From Vectrevirus T205P4: a stretch of 44,005 nucleotides of DNA. Both the position numbers and the translations under genes were made by a program. Location of the stretch: the sequence record OZ035727.1; one strand, 5' to 3'. The notes under the pieces are model-generated. The model searched no databases. It was not told the origin of the DNA and saw nothing but the letters and a program-made list of their open reading frames with translations. Positions 1 through 32,747 of the stretch are shown piece by piece (the first letter of the stretch is position 1; each line of letters opens with the position of its first letter).

Positions 1-46
1 TAATAAGTTCAAGATTTGGAGAGAGAAGCGTGAGCGTACACAATAA
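1..46 (+). CDS. Possible 3' end of the holin gene that begins at 43857 (valid only if window end and start are contiguous in the real genome)
   Basis: The 43857 ORF runs off the window end in frame; continuing at base 1 gives ...YNKFKIWREKRERTQ and a stop at 44-46, a basic tail like that of T7 gp17.5. Inference only. Confidence 0.3.
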   Translation, partial: NKFKIWREKRERTQ

Positions 47-329
47 ACATGCAGCTACAGAGGATGAGGTTGGCATTCTGCATGGTGCTATTACCAAAAT
101 CTTCAATAAGAAAGCACAGGCAATACTGGACACTATAGAAGAAGACCCTGATGCAGCATTACATTTAGTGTCTGGTAAGGATATTGGTGCGATGTGTAAG
201 TGGGTTCTTGATAACGGCATTACCGCCACACCTGCTGCACAGCAGGAAGAGTCCAAGTTATCTAAGCGCCTCAAGGCTATCCGAGAGGCATCCAGTGGTA
301 AGATAATTCAATTCACTAAGGAGGATTGA
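30..329 (+). CDS. Terminase small subunit (DNA maturase A-like), 99 aa, GTG start
   Basis: GGAGAGAGAAG RBS before GTG at 30; 4-nt overlap with the large terminase gene; size and position match T7 gp18-type. No motif-level confirmation. Confidence 0.55.
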   Translation: MSVHNKHAATEDEVGILHGAITKIFNKKAQAILDTIEEDPDAALHLVSGKDIGAMCKWVLDNGITATPAAQQEESKLSKRLKAIREASSGKIIQFTKED

Positions 330-2227
330 TGGCTAAGGCAAGAGAATCACAAGCGGAGGCTCTTGCCAGATGGGAGATGCTACAGGAGTTACAGCAGACC
401 TTTCCTTACACAGCGGAAGGTTTGCTTCTCTTTGCAGATACAGTTATTCATAACTTAATTGCAGGCAACCCTCATCTGATTCGTATGCAGGCGGATATCT
501 TGAAGTTCCTATTTTACGGACACAAGTACCGCCTCATCGAAGCGCCTCGTGGTATCGCTAAGACAACATTATCAGCAATCTATACGGTATTCCGTATTAT
601 TCATGAACCGCATAAGCGTATCATGGTTGTGTCCCAAAACGCCAAGCGAGCAGAGGAAATCGCAGGTTGGGTAGTTAAAATCTTCCGTGGCTTAGACTTT
701 CTTGAGTTTATGCTGCCGGATATCTACGCTGGGGACCGTGCATCCGTTAAGGCGTTTGAGATTCATTACACCCTCCGTGGTAGTGATAAGTCTCCTTCTG
801 TATCCTGTTACTCAATCGAAGCAGGTATGCAGGGTGCTCGTGCTGATATTATTCTAGCGGATGACGTAGAGTCGATGCAGAATGCTCGTACGGCAGCGGG
901 CCGTGCCTTGCTTGAGGAACTGACTAAGGAGTTTGAATCTATCAACCAGTTTGGGGATATCATTTACCTTGGTACACCTCAGAACGTAAACTCTATCTAC
1001 AACAACCTACCTGCTCGTGGTTACTCTGTTCGTATCTGGACTGCGCGTTACCCTTCAGTAGAGCAAGAGCAATGTTATGGCGACTTCCTTGCACCTATGA
1101 TTGTTCAAGATATGAAGGACAACCCAGCACTTCGCTCAGGGTACGGGTTGGATGGTAATAGTGGTGCACCTTGTGCCCCTGAAATGTATGATGATGAAGT
1201 CCTGATTGAGAAGGAAATCTCTCAGGGTGCTGCTAAGTTCCAGCTTCAGTTCATGCTTAACACTCGCATGATGGATGCTGACAGATACCCATTACGCCTG
1301 AACAATCTAATCTTCACCTCGTTTGGTACAGAGGAAGTCCCTGTGATGCCTACGTGGAGTAATGATTCCATAAACATCATTGGTGATGCACCTAAGTATG
1401 GTAACAAGCCTACGGATTTCATGTACAGACCTGTAGCTCGCCCATACGAATGGGGTGCTGTCTCCCGCAAGATTATGTATATTGACCCTGCGGGTGGTGG
1501 TAAGAATGGGGACGAGACGGGTGTAGCCATCGTATTCCTGCACGGCACATTCATTTATGTGTATCAGTGCTTTGGTGTACCTGGCGGATACCGAGAATCG
1601 TCCCTGAATCGCATTGTGCAGGCCGCAAAGCAGGCTGGTGTTAAAGAGGTATTCATTGAGAAGAACTTTGGTCATGGCGCGTTTGAGGCGGTAATTAAGC
1701 CGTACTTTGAACGAGAGTGGCCTGTAACTCTGGAAGAGGATTACGCCACCGGACAGAAAGAGTTGCGTATCATTGAGACGCTGGAGCCGCTCATGGCAGC
1801 CCATAGGCTTATCTTCAATGCAGAGATGGTGAAGTCAGACTTTGAGTCGGTACAGCACTATCCGCTTGAACTACGCATGTCCTACAGTCTTTTCAATCAA
1901 ATGTCGAACATAACGATTGAGAAGAACAGCCTCCGGCACGATGACCGCCTAGACGCCCTGTATGGCGCTATACGGCAATTAACTTCTCAGATAGACTATG
2001 ACGAGGTTACACGGATTAATCGCCTCAGAGCGCAGGAGATGCGCGATTACATCCATGCTATGAATACACCTCATCTACGCAGGGCAATGCTATATGGAGA
2101 TTACGGTACTGAGCGAAGAGTGACCAACACTTCCGTAGCGATGCAGCAGCGAGTTTACGGGCAGAACTGCCGAAATAAATCGGCAAGCAGAAATACACTT
2201 TCTGCAAGGATTTCAAGGACTTATTAA
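326..2227 (+). CDS. Terminase large subunit (T7 gp19-like), 633 aa
   Basis: Long ORF with ATPase-type P-loop-like region (EAPRGIAKTT) and the size and position expected of a T7-group large terminase. Confidence 0.92.
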   Translation: MMAKARESQAEALARWEMLQELQQTFPYTAEGLLLFADTVIHNLIAGNPHLIRMQADILKFLFYGHKYRLIEAPRGIAKTTLSAIYTVFRIIHEPHKRIMVVSQNAKRAEEIAGWVVKIFRGLDFLEFMLPDIYAGDRASVKAFEIHYTLRGSDKSPSVSCYSIEAGMQGARADIILADDVESMQNARTAAGRALLEELTKEFESINQFGDIIYLGTPQNVNSIYNNLPARGYSVRIWTARYPSVEQEQCYGDFLAPMIVQDMKDNPALRSGYGLDGNSGAPCAPEMYDDEVLIEKEISQGAAKFQLQFMLNTRMMDADRYPLRLNNLIFTSFGTEEVPVMPTWSNDSINIIGDAPKYGNKPTDFMYRPVARPYEWGAVSRKIMYIDPAGGGKNGDETGVAIVFLHGTFIYVYQCFGVPGGYRESSLNRIVQAAKQAGVKEVFIEKNFGHGAFEAVIKPYFEREWPVTLEEDYATGQKELRIIETLEPLMAAHRLIFNAEMVKSDFESVQHYPLELRMSYSLFNQMSNITIEKNSLRHDDRLDALYGAIRQLTSQIDYDEVTRINRLRAQEMRDYIHAMNTPHLRRAMLYGDYGTERRVTNTSVAMQQRVYGQNCRNKSASRNTLSARISRTY

Positions 2228-2247
2228 TTACTGGACACTATAGAAGG
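2226..2247 (+). promoter_or_regulatory. Phage RNAP promoter P1 (AATTACTGGACACTATAGAAGG)
   Basis: Matches the window-wide 23-nt consensus; sits immediately after the terminase stop. Confidence 0.7.
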
Positions 2248-2379
2248 AAGGCCCAGATAATAAGAGAAATAACAAGGATAATATAGTTAACCTAGGTTAT
2301 ATAGGTTACTATAGTATGGGTGTACTCCTGTACACCCTATTCCTACTTACTATTTACTTATATGTATAAGGAGTATTAG

Positions 2380-2661
2380 ATGGCTAATGATTATAGTGAT
2401 CAACCTTTAACTGGTCGATATGACCGTAAGCAGATTACACCGACCAGTGAGGCATTAATGCTCCCTGTTGTTACAGAGGAGTCTATTACGAAGAAAGCCA
2501 ATGTTATCAATGATGCAACCAAATCTGGTAAACAGAAAGCAGCAATGGTATGTCGTCCTGTAGGTGGCACTCTTGAGATTGCCATTGCTACTGGTAGCAA
2601 AGAGGATGCAGATTGGTTGTCTGTTAAAATGGACAGCGTTGGTCTTATTACACCGGCTTAA
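2380..2661 (+). CDS. Hypothetical protein, 93 aa, paralog A of a tandem pair
   Basis: AAGGAG RBS; shares a motif skeleton (SGKQK-AMV ... IAIA-GS ... W ... TP) with the next ORF. Confidence 0.6.
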   Translation: MANDYSDQPLTGRYDRKQITPTSEALMLPVVTEESITKKANVINDATKSGKQKAAMVCRPVGGTLEIAIATGSKEDADWLSVKMDSVGLITPA

Positions 2662-2678
2662 TAAAAGGAGAAGATAAT

Positions 2679-2966
2679 ATGTCTAAGTATGGCGATGCAG
2701 GTACGACTACTGGTCAGGTTTTTCGTGTAAAAGCAGTACAAACTATTGCAACTGCAATTCCTATGCCTATCGTGGCAGAAGCTGACCTTAAAAAGAAAGA
2801 TCATCCAATTAATATTGAACACCTATCTGGTAAGCAGAAAGGTGCTATGGTGGTTGTAGATAAAGGAGATAGCCTTTATATTGCTATTGCGCGTGGCTCT
2901 GCACCAACTGACAAGTGGGATGCAACTACTATGGAGGTGACACCTGTCACTCCAGAAGGGGATTAA
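2679..2966 (+). CDS. Hypothetical protein, 95 aa, paralog B of a tandem pair
   Basis: AAAGGAGA RBS; paralogous to 2380..2661. Confidence 0.6.
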   Translation: MSKYGDAGTTTGQVFRVKAVQTIATAIPMPIVAEADLKKKDHPINIEHLSGKQKGAMVVVDKGDSLYIAIARGSAPTDKWDATTMEVTPVTPEGD

Positions 2967-2968
2967 TA

Positions 2969-3313
2969 ATGCTTAACAAATACTTCAAGCGTAAAGAGTT
3001 CGCTTGCCGTTGTGGGTGCGGTACATCCACTGTTGATGCTGAATTACTACAGGTAGTCACAGATGTGCGTGAGCACTTTGGTTCTCCTGTAGTTATCACT
3101 TCGGGGCATCGCTGTGCTAAGCACAATGCTAATGTAGGAGGAGCTAAGAACTCCATGCATCTTACTGGTAAGGCTGCTGACATTAAGGTACGAGGTATCT
3201 TACCTTCTGATGTACATAAGTATCTTACTGATAAGTACCAAGGCAAGTATGGTATTGGTAAGTATACCTCCTTTACTCATATTGATGTACGTAACGGGTG
3301 TGCACGATGGTAG
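2969..3313 (+). CDS. Endolysin, zinc peptidase M15-type (L-alanyl-D-glutamate peptidase-like), about 115 aa
   Basis: Motifs SGHRCxxHN ... GGAxNSxH ... AADI ... H-x-D typical of M15 peptidases; ATG at 2969 with AAGGGGA RBS (the track ORF starts further upstream at 2915). Confidence 0.8.
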   Translation: MLNKYFKRKEFACRCGCGTSTVDAELLQVVTDVREHFGSPVVITSGHRCAKHNANVGGAKNSMHLTGKAADIKVRGILPSDVHKYLTDKYQGKYGIGKYTSFTHIDVRNGCARW

Positions 3314-3421
3314 GTTGTGTTGCATGGTGTGAACGCATGGTTGCTAAGGCTTCAGAGGAAGGCAACTATGAAGATTGGCAGAACTACTCAACTTTATTAG
3401 CTCAATGGAAAGGGAGATGCA

Positions 3422-3571
3422 ATGAAAAAGCTGTTCAAATCTAAGAAGGTTGTAGGTGCACTAGTTGCATTGGCAATTGCTCTTGTTTCTGTAGGTCTTG
3501 GTGTAGACCTTGGCTCTGGCACGGAATCCTCTGTGACAGACGTGGTCTGCCAAGTGATCACCTGTGAATAA
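3422..3571 (+). CDS. Small membrane protein, 49 aa (MKKLFKSKKVVGALVALAIALVSVGLGV...); possible holin/antiholin-type lysis protein
   Basis: AAGGGAGA RBS 5 nt before ATG; basic N-terminus followed by one hydrophobic helix; below the ORF-track size cutoff. Confidence 0.45.
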   Translation: MKKLFKSKKVVGALVALAIALVSVGLGVDLGSGTESSVTDVVCQVITCE

Positions 3572-3785
3572 GTTTCTAGAAGTGCTGGCAGGTCTTATTG
3601 GCCTGCTTGCCTCTGCTAAGAAGAAACAAGAAGAGAAGGAGGCACAAAGTGAAGCGAATCAGGTTAGTGACAATCCTGCTGATTGGTTCGCTGACCACTT
3701 CCGGGTGTCAGCAGGCGTTACCAGAGAAAGCAATGGTGAAACCTCTGAGGCCGACGCTGACGGAAGTTTACGAGGTAGACGATAA
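3564..3785 (+). CDS. Putative i-spanin (Rz-like), 73 aa, GTG start
   Basis: N-terminal transmembrane segment (FLEVLAGLIGLLASA) then a charged region; overlaps the lipoprotein ORF in another frame. Short for an i-spanin. Confidence 0.4.
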   Translation: MNKFLEVLAGLIGLLASAKKKQEEKEAQSEANQVSDNPADWFADHFRVSAGVTRESNGETSEADADGSLRGRR

Positions 3786-3858
3786 GGTCTGCTTTAGTAA
3801 GCCTGACGCTACAAAATTAGGTTTGTATATTCTTTCGCTAGAACGCGGATATAATTAA
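3649..3858 (+). CDS. Putative o-spanin (Rz1-like outer-membrane lipoprotein), about 69 aa, GTG start
   Basis: AAGGAGG RBS 6 nt before GTG at 3649; signal peptide with lipobox-like LTTSGC; overlaps the 3564 ORF in the +1 frame, as in T7 18.5/18.7 (T7 Rz1 lipobox ISGC). Confidence 0.55.
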   Translation: MKRIRLVTILLIGSLTTSGCQQALPEKAMVKPLRPTLTEVYEVDDKVCFSKPDATKLGLYILSLERGYN

Positions 3859-3887
3859 TACATAGCTTTATGTATCAGTGTCTTACG

Positions 3888-3910
3888 ATTTACTGGACAC
3901 TATAGAAGAG
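3888..3910 (+). promoter_or_regulatory. Phage RNAP promoter P2 (ATTTACTGGACACTATAGAAGAG) driving the tailspike genes
   Basis: Near-perfect consensus copy 80 nt upstream of the tailspike 1 start. Confidence 0.8.
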
Positions 3911-3989
3911 GTAAGATAGCGCCGTTCTTTTGAGCGGCCTATTACTAGCCAATCTTCATAGGGAGGGTTGGAAAGTAATAGGAGATAGC

Positions 3990-5888
3990 ATGGCTAAATT
4001 AACCAAACCTAATACTGAAGGAATCTTGCATAAAGGACAATCTTTGTATGAGTACCTTGATGCGAGAGTTTTAACATCAAAGCCGTTTGGTGCTGTAGGT
4101 GACGCCACTACTGATGATACGGAGGTTATAGCTGCTTCATTAAACTCTCAGAAAGCTGTCACAATCTCAGACGGTGTATTCTCTAGCTCTGGTATTAATA
4201 GTAATTACTGTAACTTAGACGGTAGAGGTAGTGGGGTGCTAAGTCACCGTTCCAGTGCAGGTAACTACTTAGTATTTAACAATCCACGTACAGGTCGCTT
4301 AAGTAATATTACGGTAGAAAGTAATAAGGCGACTGATACAACTCAGGGACAGCAGGTATCTCTTGCTGGTGGAAGTGATGTTACTGTAAGTGACGTTAAC
4401 TTCTCAAACGTTAAAGGTACTGGTTTCAGTTTAATCGCATACCCTAATGATGCGCCACCTGATGGACTTATGATTAAAGGCATTCGAGGTAGCTATTCAG
4501 GCTATGCTACTAATAAGGCAGCCGGATGCGTACTTGCTGACTCCTCAGTTAACTCCCTCATAGATAACGTCATTGCTAAGAACTACCCTCAGTTCGGAGC
4601 AGTAGAGTTGAAAGGTACAGCCAGTTACAACATAGTCAGTAATGTTATAGGGGCAGATTGCCAGCATGTAACTTACAACGGCACCGAAGGGCCAATAGCT
4701 CCTTCTAATAACCTTATCAAGGGGGTGATGGCTAATAACCCTAAGTATGCAGCGGTTGTTGCAGGCAAAGGAAGTACGAACTTAATCTCAGACGTGCTTG
4801 TAGATTACTCAACTTCTGATGCTAGGCAGGCTCATGGTGTTACCGTAGAAGGGTCTGATAACGTCATAAATAATGTGCTTATGTCAGGATGTGATGGTAC
4901 TAACTCTTTAGGACAAGGGCAGACCGCTACAATTGCACGCTTTATAGGTACAGCTAATAACAACTATGCGTCTGTATTTCCTAGCTACAGTGCTACAGGT
5001 GTTATTACTTTCGAATCCGGCTCTACCCGTAACTTCGTAGAGGTAAAGCACCCTGGCAGGAGAAACGACCTTCTCAGTTCTGCTAGTACTATTGACGGTG
5101 CAGCTACTATTGACGGCACTAATAATAGTAACGTAGTACACGCACCTGCATTAGGGCAGTACATAGGTAGTATGTCAGGTAGGTTCGAATGGCGGATTAA
5201 GTCCATGTCACTCCCTTCAGGCGTTCTTACTTCTGCTGATAAGTACAGAATGCTTGGGGATGGTGCTGTATCATTAGCTGTAGGTGGGGGTACTTCTTCT
5301 CAAGTTCGCCTATTTACTTCTGATGGTACTTCTCGGACAGTGGCCCTCACCAACGGTAACGTGCGTCTTTCTACCAGTAGCACAGGCTATTTGCAGTTAG
5401 GTGCTGATGCAATGACCCCAGATAGTACTGGTACATACGCATTAGGTTCCGCCAGTCGAGCATGGTCTGGAGGTTTTACTCAAGCAGCATTCACTGTTAC
5501 ATCAGATGCTCGGTGTAAAACAGAACCTCTTACTATCTCAGATGCCTTACTGGATGCTTGGTCTGAAGTTGACTTTGTGCAGTTTCAGTATTTGGATCGT
5601 GTTGAGGAGAAGGGTGCAGACTCAGCTAGATGGCACTTTGGCATCATCGCTCAGCGAGCTAAGGAGGCTTTCGAACGCCACGGTATAGATGCACATCGCT
5701 ATGGCTTCTTGTGCTTCGACAGTTGGGATGATGTATACGAGGAAGATGCCAATGGCTCTCGTAAACTGATTACACCAGCAGGTTCCCGCTACGGTATTCG
5801 TTACGAGGAAGTGCTGATATTAGAGGCTGCGTTGATGCGGAGGACTATTAAGCGTATGCAGGAAGCACTAGCTTCCCTGCCTAAGTAA
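3990..5888 (+). CDS. Tailspike protein 1 (632 aa): beta-helix depolymerase with C-terminal intramolecular chaperone domain; K5-lyase/endosialidase-type architecture
   Basis: AGGAGA RBS before ATG at 3990 (MAKLTKPNTEG...); repetitive beta-helix-like middle; C-terminal SDARCK...RWHFGIIAQRAKEAFERHGID...YEEVLILEA resembles the autocleaving chaperone domain of endosialidase/K5 lyase tailspikes. Confidence 0.88.
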   Translation: MAKLTKPNTEGILHKGQSLYEYLDARVLTSKPFGAVGDATTDDTEVIAASLNSQKAVTISDGVFSSSGINSNYCNLDGRGSGVLSHRSSAGNYLVFNNPRTGRLSNITVESNKATDTTQGQQVSLAGGSDVTVSDVNFSNVKGTGFSLIAYPNDAPPDGLMIKGIRGSYSGYATNKAAGCVLADSSVNSLIDNVIAKNYPQFGAVELKGTASYNIVSNVIGADCQHVTYNGTEGPIAPSNNLIKGVMANNPKYAAVVAGKGSTNLISDVLVDYSTSDARQAHGVTVEGSDNVINNVLMSGCDGTNSLGQGQTATIARFIGTANNNYASVFPSYSATGVITFESGSTRNFVEVKHPGRRNDLLSSASTIDGAATIDGTNNSNVVHAPALGQYIGSMSGRFEWRIKSMSLPSGVLTSADKYRMLGDGAVSLAVGGGTSSQVRLFTSDGTSRTVALTNGNVRLSTSSTGYLQLGADAMTPDSTGTYALGSASRAWSGGFTQAAFTVTSDARCKTEPLTISDALLDAWSEVDFVQFQYLDRVEEKGADSARWHFGIIAQRAKEAFERHGIDAHRYGFLCFDSWDDVYEEDANGSRKLITPAGSRYGIRYEEVLILEAALMRRTIKRMQEALASLPK

Positions 5889-5895
5889 GCAACAG

Positions 5896-5918
5896 GCAGT
5901 GCGTAAGCACTGCTTTTC
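5896..5918 (+). terminator. Hairpin plus T-tract between the two tailspike genes
   Basis: GCAGTGC-GTAA-GCACTGC followed by TTTTCACGC. Confidence 0.5.
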
Positions 5919-5973
5919 ACGCAACTTTTCTTAAAGGTTATCATGGTGGTAGCCTTTCAGAAAAGGAGGTTAC

Positions 5974-7632
5974 ATGCTACAACGATTAAGTTCTTCACTA
6001 GTGAAGCACAAGAGCAAGCTAATAGGCGCTACCTATAGGCTGCTTGGTGATAAACTTTTAGAGCTAAATAGTGTATCAGATTTTGGTGCAATACCAAATC
6101 TTGAAACAGATAGTACTAATTCCATTCAAGCTGCAATTGATGCGACCCCGTCTGGTGGTACTCTAGGCTTCTATGGTGGGCCTTATAGATTTGGTACTGT
6201 TACAGTGGATAAACCAATTACACTAGTTGGAGATGCAGATTTGCAGTTTGAGTGCATTCGTATCAAGACAAGTAAGTTTCGTAGTTTCTTGACAGGAACA
6301 CTAACTGCTGCGAGATACGACAGTGCATGTCGTGCATTTCAAATCTTAGCCTATGAAGATGGGCAAGATTATGAGGACATCAAGGTACATGGTGCACGTT
6401 TCGAGGGTTTCTTCTATAACACAGACTTCCGAGGCCGCTCTTACGATGCGTCAGAAAGTGATCCTGCTAACAGAGTGGTTCGGGATACCTCTATTATGGG
6501 CTGTACTTCAGTTCAGCCTAAAGATGGTAAAGACAGAGGGCACTTTCAACACGTAGGTGTAACCAATGCCAAATGCATAGGTAACTCAACGTATGGCGGC
6601 AAGAATGCCACTTCTTATAACTTCATTAATGGTAATGGCTCTTTGGTGGTTATGGGTAACTATGACCATGACAATGAATATGGCTCATTAGAGATTGAGA
6701 ATAACAAGATAAGCTATGGTGTGGTTACTGGTAATATCTTCCATAAACAACTATGGATAGATGATACTAGCAACATTAATGTAATAGGTAACACCTGCAC
6801 AGATAGGATTTACATTACTGCACAATCTAACAACTCTGAGAACGTATCAGTAGTGGGAAACAATGTACCACGCATCTACGTCAGTAAGTTTGGTCAAAGC
6901 CCAACAGGTCGTCACCGTAACTTGACCATACGTGGTAATCATATCACTGGCAAGGATGTTCCTAACTGTATATTCTTAGACGATTCTGTGGATTCCGCTT
7001 CTATTGAGGGTAATGATTGTTATGGTGTATCTGGTGTTAGAGGCATAGCCATTACTCGTCATGCAGATGCTAACCATACAGTGCGTCATAATAACTTACA
7101 TGGCACTAACTTGCTCTTTAGTGGTTCGGGTGGCAAAGTTTATAGTTATGACAACTTTGATGTTGGAGTTGATGAATCACCTGTGACAGACAGAACTGAC
7201 GCAGTGCACATTGACAACCTTCTTCGTGTAAATGATGAGTACCTTGATTTGCCAGGAAAGTACCTATACAAATCTAAGTATACAAGAGACATTACACAAG
7301 GAGGCTCCACCACTATTGAGTTACCTATAACCACAAGTGGTACTTTGGCTTTTCGTGGTATTAGTTTATGGGTTCTTATCCGTAACACTTCTACTGGTAA
7401 CTTGTCTTCTTATCGTGTCGATGGAAGACATGCAGTAAGTGGTTCTTCTGTGACTGTTAGTTTTGGAGAGAAGTATGGGGTATTAGGGGTGAATACTGGT
7501 GATGTTACTATTAGTAATGATGCCTCTACGACTAATCTTATTCGTATCAAGGTAAGCAATGAGCATGTAAGTCAGACAATGCAGGTCACAGTTGTACCAG
7601 AGGTAACAAGCAGATTGGGAACTGAAGAGTAA
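5974..7632 (+). CDS. Tailspike protein 2 (552 aa), right-handed beta-helix (pectate-lyase-like) receptor-binding/depolymerase protein
   Basis: AAGGAGG RBS; repeated VxGN/NxxxG beta-helix rungs (VIGNTCTDRIYIT, VVGNNVPRIYVS, IRGNHITGKD); second spike gene directly after spike 1, as in K1-5/SP6-type phages. Confidence 0.85.
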   Translation: MLQRLSSSLVKHKSKLIGATYRLLGDKLLELNSVSDFGAIPNLETDSTNSIQAAIDATPSGGTLGFYGGPYRFGTVTVDKPITLVGDADLQFECIRIKTSKFRSFLTGTLTAARYDSACRAFQILAYEDGQDYEDIKVHGARFEGFFYNTDFRGRSYDASESDPANRVVRDTSIMGCTSVQPKDGKDRGHFQHVGVTNAKCIGNSTYGGKNATSYNFINGNGSLVVMGNYDHDNEYGSLEIENNKISYGVVTGNIFHKQLWIDDTSNINVIGNTCTDRIYITAQSNNSENVSVVGNNVPRIYVSKFGQSPTGRHRNLTIRGNHITGKDVPNCIFLDDSVDSASIEGNDCYGVSGVRGIAITRHADANHTVRHNNLHGTNLLFSGSGGKVYSYDNFDVGVDESPVTDRTDAVHIDNLLRVNDEYLDLPGKYLYKSKYTRDITQGGSTTIELPITTSGTLAFRGISLWVLIRNTSTGNLSSYRVDGRHAVSGSSVTVSFGEKYGVLGVNTGDVTISNDASTTNLIRIKVSNEHVSQTMQVTVVPEVTSRLGTEE

Positions 7633-18346: not shown

Positions 18347-20879
18347 TTGGAAAGAATACGGTAAAAACCGGATCCTAGTTATGGACGCCGAAGCAAAAGG
18401 CTTGCTTGATGCCATACGCTATGGTCATCGTGAAGATGTGCACATCATTTGCTGCATGGATTTACTCACCACTGAGGAGTTCCTATTCTTCGACCCATAT
18501 GAGATGCGTGACCCTGAGGCAAGGGAACGCCTGAAGGAGTGGGAAGGCCATCAAGACGGAACCTTGGTTGATGGTGTTAACTTCCTAAAGCACTGTGAAG
18601 CCATCGTCTCACAGAACTTCCTAGGCTATGACGGGCTTCTCTTTGAGAAAGCCTTCCCTGACATCTGGAAAGGATTTAACTACACCGAGAGGCGCGGCAA
18701 TGGCAGACTACGTGCTGACCTGTGTCCGGTACGCGTCATGGATACGCTGGTCATGAGTCGCCTGTTAAACCCAGATAGACGCCTTCCTCCGCAAGCATAT
18801 GCCAAAGGCATGGGTAACGTCGCCCCTCACTCAATTGAGGCGCACGGCATCCGTATAGGCCGCTATAAACCAGAGAACGAGGACTGGTCTAAACTAACTG
18901 ACCACATGGTTCACCGTGTACGTGAAGACGTGGCAATTGGTCGTGACCTTTTCCTATGGCTTTACAACGGAGAGTGGACGGAGCACAAACGCCGTGGCGT
19001 GAATAAACGTACTGGCCTAGGTATTGAGACAGCCTTCCACATGGAGTCCATTGTGGCGCTGGAGATGAGCCGTCAGGCCGAGCGCGGGTTCCGTCTGGAC
19101 ATCGACAAGGCTTTGGCCCGATGCGAAGAATTGGACGCTAAAATTGACGAGACAGTCGCAGCGTTCCGCCCTCACATGCCTATGCGTATCAAGTCTAAAC
19201 CTTTTAAACCGGAAGAAAAGAATGAAGTATGCCAACGCGCAAATGAGTATGGAGCTAGCAACAATATACCTACTGTCCTTGACCCCTCACACTTTCTTCA
19301 TGCCGAGAGACGAGGAGATCGCAAGACAGTATGGAGTGTCACTACTAAGTCTGGTGATTGGTCGGCTAGTGTCAAGAAAGACTTCCCTCACCTTAGAGGA
19401 AACCGTAATGACACGCCAAGCATCAAGTGGATTGGCGCTTACTCGCCTGTTACTTTCGAAGAGATTCCCTTGGGTAACAGGGATACAGTTAAGCAAGTGC
19501 TCTATGATTATGGATGGAAAGGTGTTGAATTTAACGATACCGAGCAAGCTCATCTCGATGAGCACGGAGTGTTACCCAAACCTTGGAGTGGTAAGATAAA
19601 TGAAAAGTCCCTTACTTTATGGCAAGAAAGAGCCGCACGTGAAGGTAAAACAGTCCCTGATTGGTGCTTGGGTATCGCTGCATGGTACATACTCGTATCC
19701 CGTCGTGGTCAGATACTCAACCGTGGTGACGTTGAAGCCTTCAACGAGAAGGGAACGTGGCCCTCGCAGGCTGGTGTACGAAAGTGTCGCGGCCTTGTAC
19801 CGGTAGCATTCAACAAGGAGCTAGGAATCAATGCGCAGCAATACTACGAGAGGTACGGATATTGGCCTACGTCTGACAAAGATGACGGAGAGTGGCGTGT
19901 TCCAGCTGTTGCTATTAGTATTGGCACTTCTACGTTCCGTATGCGTCATCGTAACGTGGTTAATATTCCTGCCCGTGGCTTGTATCCTTTACGTGATTTA
20001 TTCATAGCAGGGAAAGGCAAGCTAATCCTTGGTTGTGACGGTGCAGGTCTTGAACTGCGTGTCCTGTCTCACTTCATGAATGACCCTGAGTACCAAGAGA
20101 TTGTACTGCACGGTGATATTCATACGCATAACCAGATGAAGGCTGGTCTTCCTAAGCGTGATATGGCGAAGACGTTTATATACGCCTTCCTCTATGGCTC
20201 TGGTATAGCCAACCTTGCAGCAGTATGTGGTGTTACTGAGGAGGAAATGAAGGAAGTTGTGGCAAGATTCGAGATTGAACTGCCGTCTCTTGCACGTCTT
20301 CGTGAGAATGTTATCGCACAAGGTAACAAGTTTGGCTACCTGCAAGCACCTGATGGGCATTGGGGTCGCATCCGCATGTCTGGTGGTGAACTTAAAGAGC
20401 ACACGATGCTTAACGTATTACTCCAGATGACTGGCTCTTTGTGTATGAAATATGCATTAGTAAAGGCATTTGCAGTAATGCGCAAGGAAGGTGTAGCCTT
20501 GGATGCTATGGGAAATCCTTGTGGTGTGGCTAACGTGCATGATGAAATCCAGATGGAAGTTCCTGAAGAGGAGGTCTTGTATCTTAACTACGACCTACCT
20601 TTCACCTTAGATGGGTTCGAAACAGAGAAGGCTGCCGTGAAAGCAGTGTTCGATGCAGAGGAGAAACGTGTTCATGTGGATTCTGAAGGACGTATGTGGT
20701 CTGCTGCAAACCTCGTCAGTGTTGATGCTGATGCTGGTGTATTGCATTGCCAGCGCCGTTATCACCGTGCAGGGCATATCATTGCCGACGCCATGACTTG
20801 GGCTGGTCAGTATCTGAAGATGCGTTGCCCGATGGCAGGAGAATATAAGATTGGCACAAGTTGGAAGGAAACACACTGA
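18333..20879 (+). CDS. DNA polymerase, family A (T7 gp5-like), about 848 aa
   Basis: N-terminal 3'-5' exonuclease motif (VMDAEAKGL), long polymerase domain, size close to SP6-type DNAP; start at ATG 18333 (MLNVDWKEYG). Confidence 0.95.
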   Translation: MLNVDWKEYGKNRILVMDAEAKGLLDAIRYGHREDVHIICCMDLLTTEEFLFFDPYEMRDPEARERLKEWEGHQDGTLVDGVNFLKHCEAIVSQNFLGYDGLLFEKAFPDIWKGFNYTERRGNGRLRADLCPVRVMDTLVMSRLLNPDRRLPPQAYAKGMGNVAPHSIEAHGIRIGRYKPENEDWSKLTDHMVHRVREDVAIGRDLFLWLYNGEWTEHKRRGVNKRTGLGIETAFHMESIVALEMSRQAERGFRLDIDKALARCEELDAKIDETVAAFRPHMPMRIKSKPFKPEEKNEVCQRANEYGASNNIPTVLDPSHFLHAERRGDRKTVWSVTTKSGDWSASVKKDFPHLRGNRNDTPSIKWIGAYSPVTFEEIPLGNRDTVKQVLYDYGWKGVEFNDTEQAHLDEHGVLPKPWSGKINEKSLTLWQERAAREGKTVPDWCLGIAAWYILVSRRGQILNRGDVEAFNEKGTWPSQAGVRKCRGLVPVAFNKELGINAQQYYERYGYWPTSDKDDGEWRVPAVAISIGTSTFRMRHRNVVNIPARGLYPLRDLFIAGKGKLILGCDGAGLELRVLSHFMNDPEYQEIVLHGDIHTHNQMKAGLPKRDMAKTFIYAFLYGSGIANLAAVCGVTEEEMKEVVARFEIELPSLARLRENVIAQGNKFGYLQAPDGHWGRIRMSGGELKEHTMLNVLLQMTGSLCMKYALVKAFAVMRKEGVALDAMGNPCGVANVHDEIQMEVPEEEVLYLNYDLPFTLDGFETEKAAVKAVFDAEEKRVHVDSEGRMWSAANLVSVDADAGVLHCQRRYHRAGHIIADAMTWAGQYLKMRCPMAGEYKIGTSWKETH

Positions 20880-28183: not shown

Positions 28184-28316
28184 AGGAATGGAGATGCTTG
28201 AGATGATTCTCAAGCCTTCTTCTCCGAAGGTGACTAAGACTCATGAAGAGTTAATCGTTGATGAAGTGAAGCGTTACATCATGGATTGTGTCAGAGCACA
28301 ACTGGTGGTTCAATGA
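28146..28316 (+). CDS. Hypothetical small protein (start uncertain, 42-60 aa)
   Basis: ATGA stop/start overlap with the downstream GNAT gene supports translation; start codon not resolved. Confidence 0.3.
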   Translation: MVQTKKKPTISFEGMEMLEMILKPSSPKVTKTHEELIVDEVKRYIMDCVRAQLVVQ

Positions 28317-28774
28317 TACGTCCAGCTTCCTTCCTAGATATTCCTGAGATTATAAACCTTGGGAATAAATATGTGGAAGAGGAAGTCAAGGTAGTGGCCC
28401 ATCACTCAGCCTCATGGAATGCAGAACAAAGTGCACATAACCTTTGTGCATCTCTTAGTAGAGAAGATTTATTCCTATGGGTGGCTGTAGATGAAGGGAA
28501 GATTGTAGGGTTCCTGTGGGCTGGCTATCACGAGTTAGCCCCTTGGACACCTGTAAGGGTTGCCTCTGACATTCTCTTTTACATTATACCAGAGAAGCGA
28601 GGGACACTACTAGGTATGCGTCTTATCAAGGCTCTTAAACAATGGGCTAATGAAAATGAATGCTCTGAGGTTCGCCTGTCTATCGCCTCTGGTATTAATG
28701 AAGAACGTGTCGGACGTATGTATAAGCGACTTGGCTTTGAACCGTTTGGCACTGTGTACAACCTGAAGTTCTAA
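28313..28774 (+). CDS. GNAT-family N-acetyltransferase, about 153 aa
   Basis: KIVGFLWAGYHE followed by IPEKRGTLLGMRLIKAL resembles the GNAT acetyl-CoA binding motif (Q/R-x-x-G-x-G/A). Confidence 0.65.
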   Translation: MIRPASFLDIPEIINLGNKYVEEEVKVVAHHSASWNAEQSAHNLCASLSREDLFLWVAVDEGKIVGFLWAGYHELAPWTPVRVASDILFYIIPEKRGTLLGMRLIKALKQWANENECSEVRLSIASGINEERVGRMYKRLGFEPFGTVYNLKF

Positions 28775-28994: not shown

Positions 28995-30545
28995 ATGAAA
29001 CAGAGCACAGATTTGGAGTATGGAGGTAAGCGGTCTAAGATACCTAAGCTATGGGAGAAGTTCTCCACTAAACGTAGCTCTTTCCTTGATAGGGCGAAGC
29101 ATTACTCCAAATTAACCTTGCCCTATCTGATGAATGACAAAGGTGATAACGAGACTTCGCAGAATGGATGGCAAGGTGTAGGTGCTCAGGCAACTAATCA
29201 TCTAGCCAACAAGCTAGCGCAAGTACTATTTCCTGCACAGCGTTCCTTCTTCCGTGTAGACTTAACTGCACAAGGTGAGAAGGTTCTTAATCAGCGTGGC
29301 CTGAAGAAGACAGAGCTAGCTACCATCTTCGCTCAAGTGGAAACACGGGCAATGAAAGAGTTAGAGCAACGTCAATTCCGGCCTGCTGTAGTGGAAGCAT
29401 TCAAGCATCTTATTGTTGCTGGTAGCTGTATGCTATACAAGCCGAGCAAAGGTGCAATCAGTGCTATCCCAATGCATCACTATGTAGTTAACCGTGATAC
29501 CAATGGCGACCTGTTAGACATTATCTTACTGCAAGAGAAAGCCTTACGCACCTTTGACCCAGCTACACGTGCTGTAGTAGAGGTTGGCCTGAAAGGTAAG
29601 AAGTGCAAGGAGGATGACAGCGTTAAGCTGTACACACATGCTAAGTATCTTGGTGATGGATTTTGGGAACTCAAGCAATCTGCTGATGATATCCCTGTGG
29701 GTAAGGTGAGTAAAATCAAATCAGAAAAGCTACCTTTCATCCCATTAACTTGGAAGCGAAGCTATGGTGAGGATTGGGGTCGCCCTCTTGCAGAGGATTA
29801 CTCCGGTGATTTATTCGTTATCCAATTCTTATCTGAAGCGGTTGCCCGTGGTGCTGCGCTGATGGCAGATATCAAGTACCTGATTCGTCCGGGTGCTCAA
29901 ACTGATGTTGACCACTTTGTTAACTCTGGCACTGGTGAGGTTGTCACTGGTGTAGAAGAAGACATCCATATTGTACAGTTAGGTAAGTACGCAGACCTCA
30001 CACCTATTAGCGCGGTTCTAGAGGTATACACTCGCCGTATCGGTGTTGTCTTCATGATGGAGACAATGACACGCCGTGACGCCGAACGTGTTACTGCTGT
30101 AGAAATCCAGCGAGATGCGTTAGAGATTGAGCAGAACATGGGTGGTGTATACTCCCTCTTTGCTACTACTATGCAATCGCCAGTAGCGATGTGGGGTCTG
30201 CTGGAGGCAGGGGAGTCCTTCACTAGTGACTTAGTGGACCCTGTGATTATCACAGGTATTGAAGCTTTAGGACGCATGGCTGAGTTGGATAAACTGGCTA
30301 ACTTTGCTCAGTATATGTCACTGCCATTACAATGGCCTGAGCCTGTCCTAGCTGCTGTGAAATGGCCTGACTATATGGATTGGGTGCGTGGTCAAATCTC
30401 TGCTGAACTGCCGTTCCTTAAATCGGCTGAAGAGATGGCACAAGAACAGGAAGCACAGATGCAAGCACAGCAAGCACAGATGCTTGAAGAAGGTGTGGCT
30501 AAGGCCGTGCCGGGTGTAATTCAACAAGAACTTAAGGAGGCGTAA
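28995..30545 (+). CDS. Head-tail connector (portal) protein, T7 gp8-like, 516 aa
   Basis: Size and position before scaffold and capsid genes; acidic Gln/Ala/Glu-rich C-terminus. Confidence 0.85.
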   Translation: MKQSTDLEYGGKRSKIPKLWEKFSTKRSSFLDRAKHYSKLTLPYLMNDKGDNETSQNGWQGVGAQATNHLANKLAQVLFPAQRSFFRVDLTAQGEKVLNQRGLKKTELATIFAQVETRAMKELEQRQFRPAVVEAFKHLIVAGSCMLYKPSKGAISAIPMHHYVVNRDTNGDLLDIILLQEKALRTFDPATRAVVEVGLKGKKCKEDDSVKLYTHAKYLGDGFWELKQSADDIPVGKVSKIKSEKLPFIPLTWKRSYGEDWGRPLAEDYSGDLFVIQFLSEAVARGAALMADIKYLIRPGAQTDVDHFVNSGTGEVVTGVEEDIHIVQLGKYADLTPISAVLEVYTRRIGVVFMMETMTRRDAERVTAVEIQRDALEIEQNMGGVYSLFATTMQSPVAMWGLLEAGESFTSDLVDPVIITGIEALGRMAELDKLANFAQYMSLPLQWPEPVLAAVKWPDYMDWVRGQISAELPFLKSAEEMAQEQEAQMQAQQAQMLEEGVAKAVPGVIQQELKEA

Positions 30546-31541: not shown

Positions 31542-32747
31542 ATGTCTACACCGAATACTCTGACCAACGTTGCAGTCTCCGCTTCCGGTGAGGTAGACAG
31601 CCTGCTCATTGAGAAATTCAATGGTAAGGTGAATGAGCAGTACCTGAAAGGTGAGAACATCATGTCCTACTTCGATGTTCAGACTGTCACTGGTACTAAC
31701 ACGGTAAGCAACAAATACTTGGGTGAAACAGAGTTGCAGGTTCTGGCACCGGGTCAGTCTCCTGCTGCAACCTCTACTCAGGCCGATAAAAACCAGCTGG
31801 TAATTGATGCCACTGTTATCGCTCGTAACACCGTTGCACACCTGCATGATGTACAGGGTGATATTGACAGCCTGAAACCGAAGCTGGCTACCAACCAAGC
31901 TAAGCAGCTTAAGAAGATGGAAGATGAAATGCTGATTCAGCAGATGCTGCTGGGCGGTATTGCTAACACTCAGGCTAAGCGTACTAATCCGCGTGTTAAA
32001 GGCCATGGCTTCTCTGTCAACGTAGAAGTTGCAGAAAGTGAAGCACTGGTCAACCCGCAGTATGTAATGGCGGCTGTAGAGTTTGCTCTGGAGCAGCAGC
32101 TTGAGCAGGAAGTAGACATCTCTGATGTAGCTATCCTGATGCCGTGGCGCTACTTCAACGTACTGCGTGATGCAGACCGTATCGTTGACAAGAGCTACAC
32201 CATTAGCCAGTCTGGTGCAACCATTCAGGGTTTTGTTCTGTCTTCTTACAACTGCCCTGTTATCCCGTCTAACCGCTTCCCTAAATTCTCTGCTGGTCAG
32301 AAACATCACCTGCTGTCAAATGAAGACAACGGTTATCGTTATGACCCGACTGCAGAAATGAATGGCGCTATCGCTGTACTGTTCACTGCTGATGCGTTGC
32401 TGGTTGGTCGTTCTATTGATGTTACTGGCGATATCTTCTATGAGAAGAAAGAGAAGACCTACTACATTGATACTTTCATGTCTGAAGGTGCAATCCCTGA
32501 TCGTTGGGAAGCAGTGTCTGTTGTGACAACTAAGCGTAACTCATCTACTGGTGATGCTGAGGGTACTGATGGAGCACAGCACACTCAAGTTCTTAACCGT
32601 GCACAGCGCAAAGCTGTATACGTCAAGAATGCTGCTCCGGCAGGTGCTGCCGCTGCTGCTAGTCTGTCTGCTGAAGACTTAGTTGCTGCTGTCCGTGCTG
32701 TCATGGCAAATGACATTAAGCCGACTGCAATGAAACCTGCTGAGTAA
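31542..32747 (+). CDS. Major capsid protein, 401 aa
   Basis: Strongest promoter and AAGGAGG RBS; followed by strong terminator; position between scaffold and tail-tube genes. Confidence 0.88.
   Translation: MSTPNTLTNVAVSASGEVDSLLIEKFNGKVNEQYLKGENIMSYFDVQTVTGTNTVSNKYLGETELQVLAPGQSPAATSTQADKNQLVIDATVIARNTVAHLHDVQGDIDSLKPKLATNQAKQLKKMEDEMLIQQMLLGGIANTQAKRTNPRVKGHGFSVNVEVAESEALVNPQYVMAAVEFALEQQLEQEVDISDVAILMPWRYFNVLRDADRIVDKSYTISQSGATIQGFVLSSYNCPVIPSNRFPKFSAGQKHHLLSNEDNGYRYDPTAEMNGAIAVLFTADALLVGRSIDVTGDIFYEKKEKTYYIDTFMSEGAIPDRWEAVSVVTTKRNSSTGDAEGTDGAQHTQVLNRAQRKAVYVKNAAPAGAAAAASLSAEDLVAAVRAVMANDIKPTAMKPAE

Follow-up and report, generated by a model that had tools for sequence, protein, structure and literature searches.

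Two tandem late genes of a K1-5-like phage, misnamed as an enzyme, encode candidate capsid-surface accessory subunits

Two adjacent small genes lying between the large terminase and endolysin genes of Vectrevirus T205P4 probably encode capsid-surface accessory subunits that form the anchor part of a pseudo-trimeric module, a reading with the balance of probability slightly in its favour. We analysed the whole stretch of 44,005 nucleotides of record OZ035727.1 (hereafter the window) together with related genomes and proteins. Under this reading, the products would be two small (~10 kDa), soluble, late proteins located on the outside of the T7-like capsid as decoration or minor capsid subunits, each of them one copy of a ~90-residue domain that would work in threes to build a (hetero)trimeric base of pseudo-threefold symmetry. 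One subunit of this base would, in relatives, carry an outward module, be it an Ig domain, a knob of the Sf6 type or a segment of a head fibre, and the window phage and K1-5, with the first two anchor-only subunits, would bear a bare cementing or decoration unit. The paralogy, synteny, repeat and fusion architecture, selection and mosaicism described below were read directly from the sequences, and presence in virions comes from the literature on orthologues; from these we infer a capsid rather than a tail site, trimeric assembly, and a stabilising, cementing or adhesive role.

Vectrevirus comprises K1-5-like phages (Autographiviridae, subfamily Molineuxvirinae), and the first 6 kb of the window were 94-99% identical at the nucleotide level to Vectrevirus genomes, K1-5 included. 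The genes run in the order small terminase, large terminase, the two ORFs, M15 endolysin, small lysis ORFs and two tailspike genes (Table 1). An earlier note made from the sequence alone had placed two ORFs of 93 and 95 aa between terminase and endolysin and had proposed that they are expressed late with strong ribosome-binding sites (RBSs). Both statements held, as the ORFs were found at those positions, an SP6-type promoter lies 3 nt past the large terminase stop codon, and a consensus RBS, AAGGAG, precedes each ATG. The promoter sequence ACTGGACACTATAGAAGG has 9 matches in the window versus 0.01 expected by chance. The leader RNA folds with -37.8 kcal/mol (z = -2.0 versus shuffles) and contains, between the phage promoter and gene 1, a perfect 8-bp hairpin at 2317-2336 (GGGUGUAC-UCCU-GUACACCC) that may serve as a site for RNase III or as an mRNA-stability element. 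The analogous leader of the metagenomic locus L007 contains many CCTATAG-like repeats.

Table 1 Features of the window and the PhiM1 pair used for comparison. Positions refer to the window unless another record is named.
Feature	Position	Strand	Evidence or remark	Amino-acid identity to K1-5
Small terminase	30-329		PF11123	100%
Large terminase	326-2227		PF22530	99.8%
SP6-type phage RNA polymerase promoter	2230-2247	+	Exact match to ACTGGACACTATAGAAGG
5' untranslated leader	2243-2379	+	Start inferred from SP6 promoter consensus
Divergent cassette versus K1-5	2250-2980	+	54-86% nucleotide identity (50-nt bins) versus 96-100% on both sides
RBS AAGGAG, paralogue 1	2368-2373	+	6 nt before ATG at 2380; read from sequence
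Paralogue 1, 93 aa, 9.9 kDa	2380-2661	+	ORF; PHROG 2725 match	67.5%
RBS AAGGAG, paralogue 2	2665-2670	+	8 nt before ATG at 2679; read from sequence
Paralogue 2, 95 aa, 10.1 kDa	2679-2966	+	ORF; PHROG 2725 match	72.6%
M15 endolysin	2969-3313		Peptidase_M15_3	95.6%
First tailspike	3930-5888		K1-5 counterpart labelled 'K5 lyase' in AY370674	98.6%
Second tailspike, 552 aa	5974-7632		Weak pectate-lyase-like N-terminal match, under Pfam cut-off
GNAT-type N-acetyltransferase ORF	28286-28774		PF00583, E 4e-10; called genuine
Portal gene	28995-30545		Downstream of the GNAT ORF
Major capsid protein	31542-32747
Adaptor-like protein, 321 aa	42882-43847		PF03906
PhiM1_47 (62 aa) and PhiM1_48 (179 aa)	JX290549 (L012) 19734-20472		Directly after large terminase

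Both proteins belong to a family that is already catalogued. Paralogue 1 is the orthologue of K1-5/K1E gp41, SP6 gp42 and Kp7 gp45, and paralogue 2 that of K1-5/K1E gp42, SP6 gp43 and Kp7 gp46 (original numbering for K1-5 and K1E; AY288927 numbering for SP6); they are 100% identical to the hypothetical proteins URC25451.1 and URC25452.1, respectively, of Escherichia phage EC120. Matches to PHROG 2725 covered residues 1-93 in both (E 8.5e-37 for paralogue 1 and 6.8e-45 for paralogue 2), and the window pair occupies the PHROG 2725 position in Autographiviridae, from large terminase to lysis genes. The earlier note had recognised no domain, which agrees with Pfam, where neither protein had a match at E up to 10, thiolase models included, and with NCBIfam, where neither had a match; in PHROG 2725 the family is filed under a wrong and unsupported enzyme name.

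That name, 'acetyl-CoA acetyltransferase', is the product name in PHROG 2725, K1-5, K1E, SP6 and many RefSeq records, and a 2016 genome paper gave the same label as "putative" by BLAST to K1E gp42. We conclude that it is spurious, a propagated annotation error. The sole support for taking the pair as acetyl-CoA acetyltransferases (thiolases), as in RefSeq and PHROGs, is the product name passed between records and PHROG 2725, and this reading can be regarded as effectively refuted: at 93-95 aa the proteins are about a quarter of the size of thiolases, which have ~390 aa, they have no Pfam thiolase, NCBIfam or PDB sequence match, and their predicted fold is a small arm-plus-meander domain. The GNAT-type ORF upstream of the portal gene is unrelated to this mislabelled pair; a putative N-acetyltransferase is encoded at the equivalent position in Kp7.

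The structure prediction proposed in the earlier note yielded a usable AlphaFold model of paralogue 1, with a mean pLDDT of 80.5 from a 99-sequence alignment (a previous prediction with a shallow alignment, pLDDT 63, was set aside), and a fold that matches nothing solved. The model predicts a domain of ~90 residues composed of an extended N-terminal arm, two short helices (4-5 residues) and a three-stranded beta meander. No structural homologue of the model was found, PDB profile searches with two alignments and a Kp7 gp45 query gave no meaningful match, and Foldseek returned weak similarities, under significance, to N-terminal parts of fibre and depolymerase proteins. Among known decoration folds, the predicted fold fits none of gpD beta-tulip, Soc, Hoc/pb10, Dec or alpha-claw. 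Both proteins are hydrophilic, with a maximal 19-residue Kyte-Doolittle mean of 1.08 and 1.26 versus 2.64 for the neighbouring holin-like ORF, and neither contains a membrane-spanning segment or a signal peptide. The lack of a membrane-spanning segment speaks against a role as lysis factor, which had been among the functions suggested for the pair.

Comparison of the two proteins by BLASTP gave 33/83 identities (40%, E = 8e-13 for the single comparison), and the motif skeleton described beforehand (P-V..E, KK, IN, SGKQK-AM, IAIA-GS, W, TP) was visible in both the pairwise and the family alignments. The invariant core of the family in the alignment consists of T11, G12, R16, P30, N45, S50-G51-K52-Q53, A56, A71, W80 and P92. 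No DNA-level repeat joining the two gene copies was found and dS between them was saturated (~1.6), indicating that the duplication is old. The proposed duplication is thus real in that the two are true paralogues, and is not peculiar to this genome, being an ancient set spread across many Autographiviridae. Against their K1-5 orthologues, dN/dS was 0.26 for paralogue 1 and 0.24 for paralogue 2, a sign of purifying selection, indicating that both are functional coding genes. The family profile detected no third copy of the domain elsewhere in the window.

The arrangement of the domain in other phages suggests a rule of three. When 1.8 billion representative proteins were searched with a profile, 229 significant relatives were returned, and repeat architectures were counted among the best 150 of these after re-scanning with a broader profile. 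About 40 of the best 150 of the 229 relatives were 256-319 aa long and consisted of exactly three tandem domains with almost no linker, and a few three-repeat proteins in the same set carried a C-terminal extension added to the three copies. Separate genes follow a similar pattern: three short paralogues lie in tandem in Pectobacterium phage PP1, and SP6 has two paralogues and a truncated third (the 81-aa gp44/"42.3"), Kp7 two short paralogues and a third fused to an Ig domain, and Vectrevirus UTI89UKE3 two short paralogues and a 225-aa third. The window and K1-5 have the first two paralogues only, a reduced two-gene form. Since three paralogues or exactly three tandem copies occur elsewhere, a pseudo-threefold base is suggested. 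One apparent relative, a 794-aa Big_7 protein with 8 weak stretches (P0312), was spurious and was lost under the broader profile.

The copies at the three positions have kept separate identities. First, second and third copies are each closest to the same-position copies in other genomes; the best cross-genome matches of paralogue 1 were always first-position copies and those of paralogue 2 were second-position copies. Likewise, among 13 three-repeat proteins, 34/39 repeat units had the same repeat position as their best match in another protein. Together with the triplet architecture, this position-specific orthology places the duplication far earlier than this genome and indicates that the copies are not redundant.

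The locus is also constant in place. In every context recovered (the window, K1-5, SP6, Kp7, PP99, PP1, UTI89UKE3 and the metagenomic loci L007, L013, L015 and L016) it follows the large terminase directly and, where the stretch is long enough to show this, precedes the lysis genes. In L007 a terminase fragment (43% identical to that of the window) and an SP6-like promoter are followed by a three-repeat gene; L013 has the order terminase, domain-plus-extension gene, lysozyme; and L016 has short paralogues, a 438-aa paralogue, a 214-aa gene and an M15 endolysin. In L015 (540-2627) a terminase fragment precedes a 283-aa three-domain gene and then a 407-aa three-domain gene with a 130-aa extension, so that this locus holds six domains over two adjacent chains. 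A search for related loci with the three-repeat protein P0194 as the query found none.

Further indications of a surface location come from the domains to which the family domain is fused. Two relatives (P0265 and P0317, the latter 99.6% identical to Rem54 of Ralstonia phage Reminis) combine the domain with an Sf6 knob (PF16532, E 1.7e-30 and 5e-43), one (P0283) combines it with an I-set Ig domain and matches Hoc-like head-decoration PHROGs, and one (P0334) combines it with a phi29 head-fibre segment (PF11133, 26.5 bits versus a cut-off of 24.6). The C-terminal extensions of other single-domain relatives are unknown domains. The Ig domain of Kp7 gp47 matches T5 pb10 (PDB 8zvi, E 6e-17; 5lxk, E 3e-16) in an alignment that begins only past the family domain. 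A conserved N-terminal part combined with interchangeable outward modules is the signature of a virion-surface anchor.

Known decoration systems offer partial parallels. T5 pb10 and T4 Hoc are monomeric decoration proteins in which a domain that binds the capsid is joined to Ig-like domains for display, and Kp7 gp47 and P0283 share the layout of an N-terminal anchor and a C-terminal Ig domain; in contrast, their anchor domain is unrelated and the window proteins are without any Ig domain. Head fibres such as phi29 gp8.5 are trimers whose N-terminal base anchors them on the capsid, and P0334, coded between large terminase and lysozyme, matches the C-terminal part of this head fibre. This match, however, spans ~50 residues and is barely over the cut-off, the segment is absent from the window proteins, and the anchor domains are dissimilar.

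The Sf6 knob and the phi29 head fibre are both trimeric modules, and as partners they fit the rule of three. Repeat number and these trimeric fusion partners are the only two grounds on which trimer formation is proposed for the family. A weak point of the trimer model is its imperfect fit to the window, where there are two genes and not three; the two-gene case would need a 2:1 assembly or a different oligomer.

Sf6-type knobs were also seen outside fusions with the family domain. PP99 (L004) encodes an Sf6-type knob protein of 203 aa (2836-3447; PF16532, E 1.8e-46) before a single short paralogue; with ~30 N-terminal residues it has no detectable copy of the family domain, and it may dock onto the short paralogue instead of carrying an anchor of its own. 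ORF96 of Dhakavirus C6, a tblastn candidate for a domain-plus-knob fusion, was rejected since it is without the domain. This ORF of Escherichia phage C6 (L010, 4881-5636) consists of a collagen-like G-X-Y repeat and an Sf6-type knob on the strand opposite to the early genes, has the T4 late-promoter motif TATAAATA upstream, and looks like an unannotated late fibre-like protein.

The tandem arrangement of the window is shared with K1-5 and SP6, whereas the window allele itself is only 67% and 73% identical to the K1-5 pair between flanking genes at 96-100%. Nucleotide identity to K1-5 in 50-nt bins is 98-100% ahead of 2250 and returns to 96-100% from 2981, so the divergent block begins just after the promoter and stops at the endolysin start. 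Synonymous divergence from K1-5 follows the same outline, with dS of 1.12 and 0.85 for the paralogues versus 0.026 for the large terminase, 0.065 for the first tailspike and 0.35 for the endolysin. A second, milder divergent patch (3181-3480, 78-90% nucleotide identity), set in sequence that is otherwise 96-100% identical, spans the end of the endolysin gene and the small ORFs that follow. In the phage collection, where 155-182 records match the two proteins, the alleles of paralogue 1 form separate classes (16 records at >=90% identity, none at 80-90% and 65 at 60-80%). The two genes are not always exchanged together, given that K1E has 61% identity in gene 1 versus 85% in gene 2, and P0102, a metagenomic protein, is a chimera that joins the N-terminal half of gene 1 to the C-terminal half of gene 2. 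The sharp bounds, the allele classes and the chimera indicate that the cassette, a sharply bounded recombination hotspot, has recombined between near-identical phages while under purifying selection.

Such an exchange pattern is common to surface-exposed and accessory genes. The pair could accordingly be read as non-structural late proteins, such as an assembly chaperone or a lysis-timing or counter-defence factor, with the virion signal of the Kp7 orthologues being carry-over. In keeping with this, the genes are small and adjoin the lysis cassette, they form the most divergent, recombination-prone segment of a ~99% identical backbone, as is typical of anti-defence genes too, and no structural homologue was found. 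We nevertheless consider it quite unlikely, considering that repeated fusions to Ig, knob and head-fibre modules are hard to square with a cytoplasmic role, that both proteins are devoid of membrane-spanning segments and signal peptides, that the family is conserved over many genera with position-specific orthology, and that a dN/dS of ~0.25 reflects purifying selection and not the signature of an arms race.

Direct virion data from a relative, the Klebsiella phage Kp7, also speak against a non-structural role. Mass spectrometry of purified Kp7 virions assigned the visible silver-stained bands to gp32, gp45, gp46 and gp47, which the preprint lists as minor capsid proteins, apart from the tail proteins (10.1101/2024.05.19.594906). 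In GenBank ON148527, gp45 and gp46 are named 'minor capsid protein' and gp47 'minor capsid protein with Ig-domain', and the basis of the capsid label is mass spectrometry and BLAST. The family profile matched gp45, gp46 and gp47 with E-values of 2e-23, 4e-28 and 2e-19; gp45 and gp46 have 88 aa each, and gp47 consists of the family domain and the Ig domain. These are homologous genes at the same locus between large terminase and endolysin, gp45 and gp46 corresponding to the window pair. Kp7 differs in having a third paralogue with a pb10/Hoc-like Ig domain, whereas the window has two anchor-only genes, and identity to the window proteins is only ~40-50%. The Kp7 capsid structure (PDB 7y3t) matched only via seven chains, each identical to the major capsid protein of Kp7, and neither Kp7 gp45 nor the family profile had a match among PDB chains; an ordered icosahedral position on the shell is therefore putative. 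Our literature searches for virion proteomics or cryo-EM of SP6, K1-5, K1E or PP99 returned no mention of these genes apart from the Kp7 preprint.

Presence in the virion would also suit a tail or neck location, in which the pair would form a small oligomeric base or collar by the adaptor and tailspikes, bearing knobs, Ig domains or fibres in relatives. The Sf6 knob and the Foldseek similarities to fibre and depolymerase N-termini fit this equally well. We regard it as unlikely all the same, as every structural similarity to tail proteins was under significance, the Kp7 depositors set gp45-gp47 apart from tail proteins, and the Ig partner matches the head decoration proteins pb10 and Hoc, with another partner matching the phi29 head fibre. 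In addition, the known tail anchor, the T7 gp17-type tail-fibre anchor PF03906, was absent from both proteins in the Pfam scan and sits on a different protein, the adaptor-like one near the end of the window.

A further argument for the capsid over the tail is positional. At the syntenic locus of the Pectobacterium phage PhiM1 (same virus family, different subfamily), immediately behind the large terminase and ahead of the lysis genes, PhiM1_47 and PhiM1_48 are sequence-identical to PDB 8vb0 chains H and J, alpha-claw (gp44) and alpha-paw (gp43), which have been located by cryo-EM as capsid decoration proteins (PDB 8vb0; PMC11440229). Both are still 'hypothetical' in GenBank JX290549. They too are two paralogues with a common anchor, one being anchor-only and the other anchor plus outward fibre. 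In contrast, alpha-claw and alpha-paw are helical and not homologous to the window proteins, whose predicted domain of arm, short helices and beta meander occurs in threes. The helix-turn-helix dimerization motif of PhiM1/HRP29 alpha-claw was not seen in our model, and the family profile had no match to 8vb0, which was in the searched library. The same locus coding for the same kind of pair thus supports a capsid over a tail site, by analogy only. Among the functions named in the earlier note, a minor virion or decoration protein is the one favoured by the Kp7 virions, the Ig, knob and head-fibre fusions and the PhiM1 locus.

The pair is not new as an object, since both proteins are in the databases, a PHROG exists for them and their orthologues have already been called minor capsid proteins. 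What we did not find in the searchable literature is the rule of three repeats or three paralogues, the variety of display domains to which the family is fused, the sharpness of the mosaic bounds and an explicit rejection of the enzyme name. K1-5, K1E and SP6-like phages are therapy candidates and model systems in which two abundant late genes are misnamed as an enzyme, and with the name corrected a false "metabolic gene" disappears from many phage records. Should the proteins be capsid-surface subunits, they would represent a decoration fold without a solved structure and would offer phage display or capsid engineering a natural site that looks non-essential, and the cassette exchange would suggest diversifying pressure on the head surface alongside the receptor-binding proteins. 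No major paradigm is altered.

A more far-reaching reading is that the domain constitutes a new capsid-anchor fold forming an obligate pseudo-threefold unit, with the third position serving as a socket for Ig, knob or fibre modules, and that shuffling of the cassette between near-identical phages means that capsid surface chemistry, beyond the tailspikes, is rapidly exchanged in SP6/K1-5-like phages. We offer this tentatively, as a possibility towards which we would not yet lean.

Two further observations concern the surroundings of the cassette. The genomes of several close relatives (EC120, LI10P3, AAPEc6 and VEc3) aligned to positions 1-6000 of the window in two pieces, with ~430 extra bases holding an HNH homing endonuclease gene that the window is without. 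The second tailspike of the window is shorter than the tail spike gene annotated in K1-5 (gp47, 2436 nt); if it differs from the K1-5 spike, K5 specificity would here be paired with a different second specificity.
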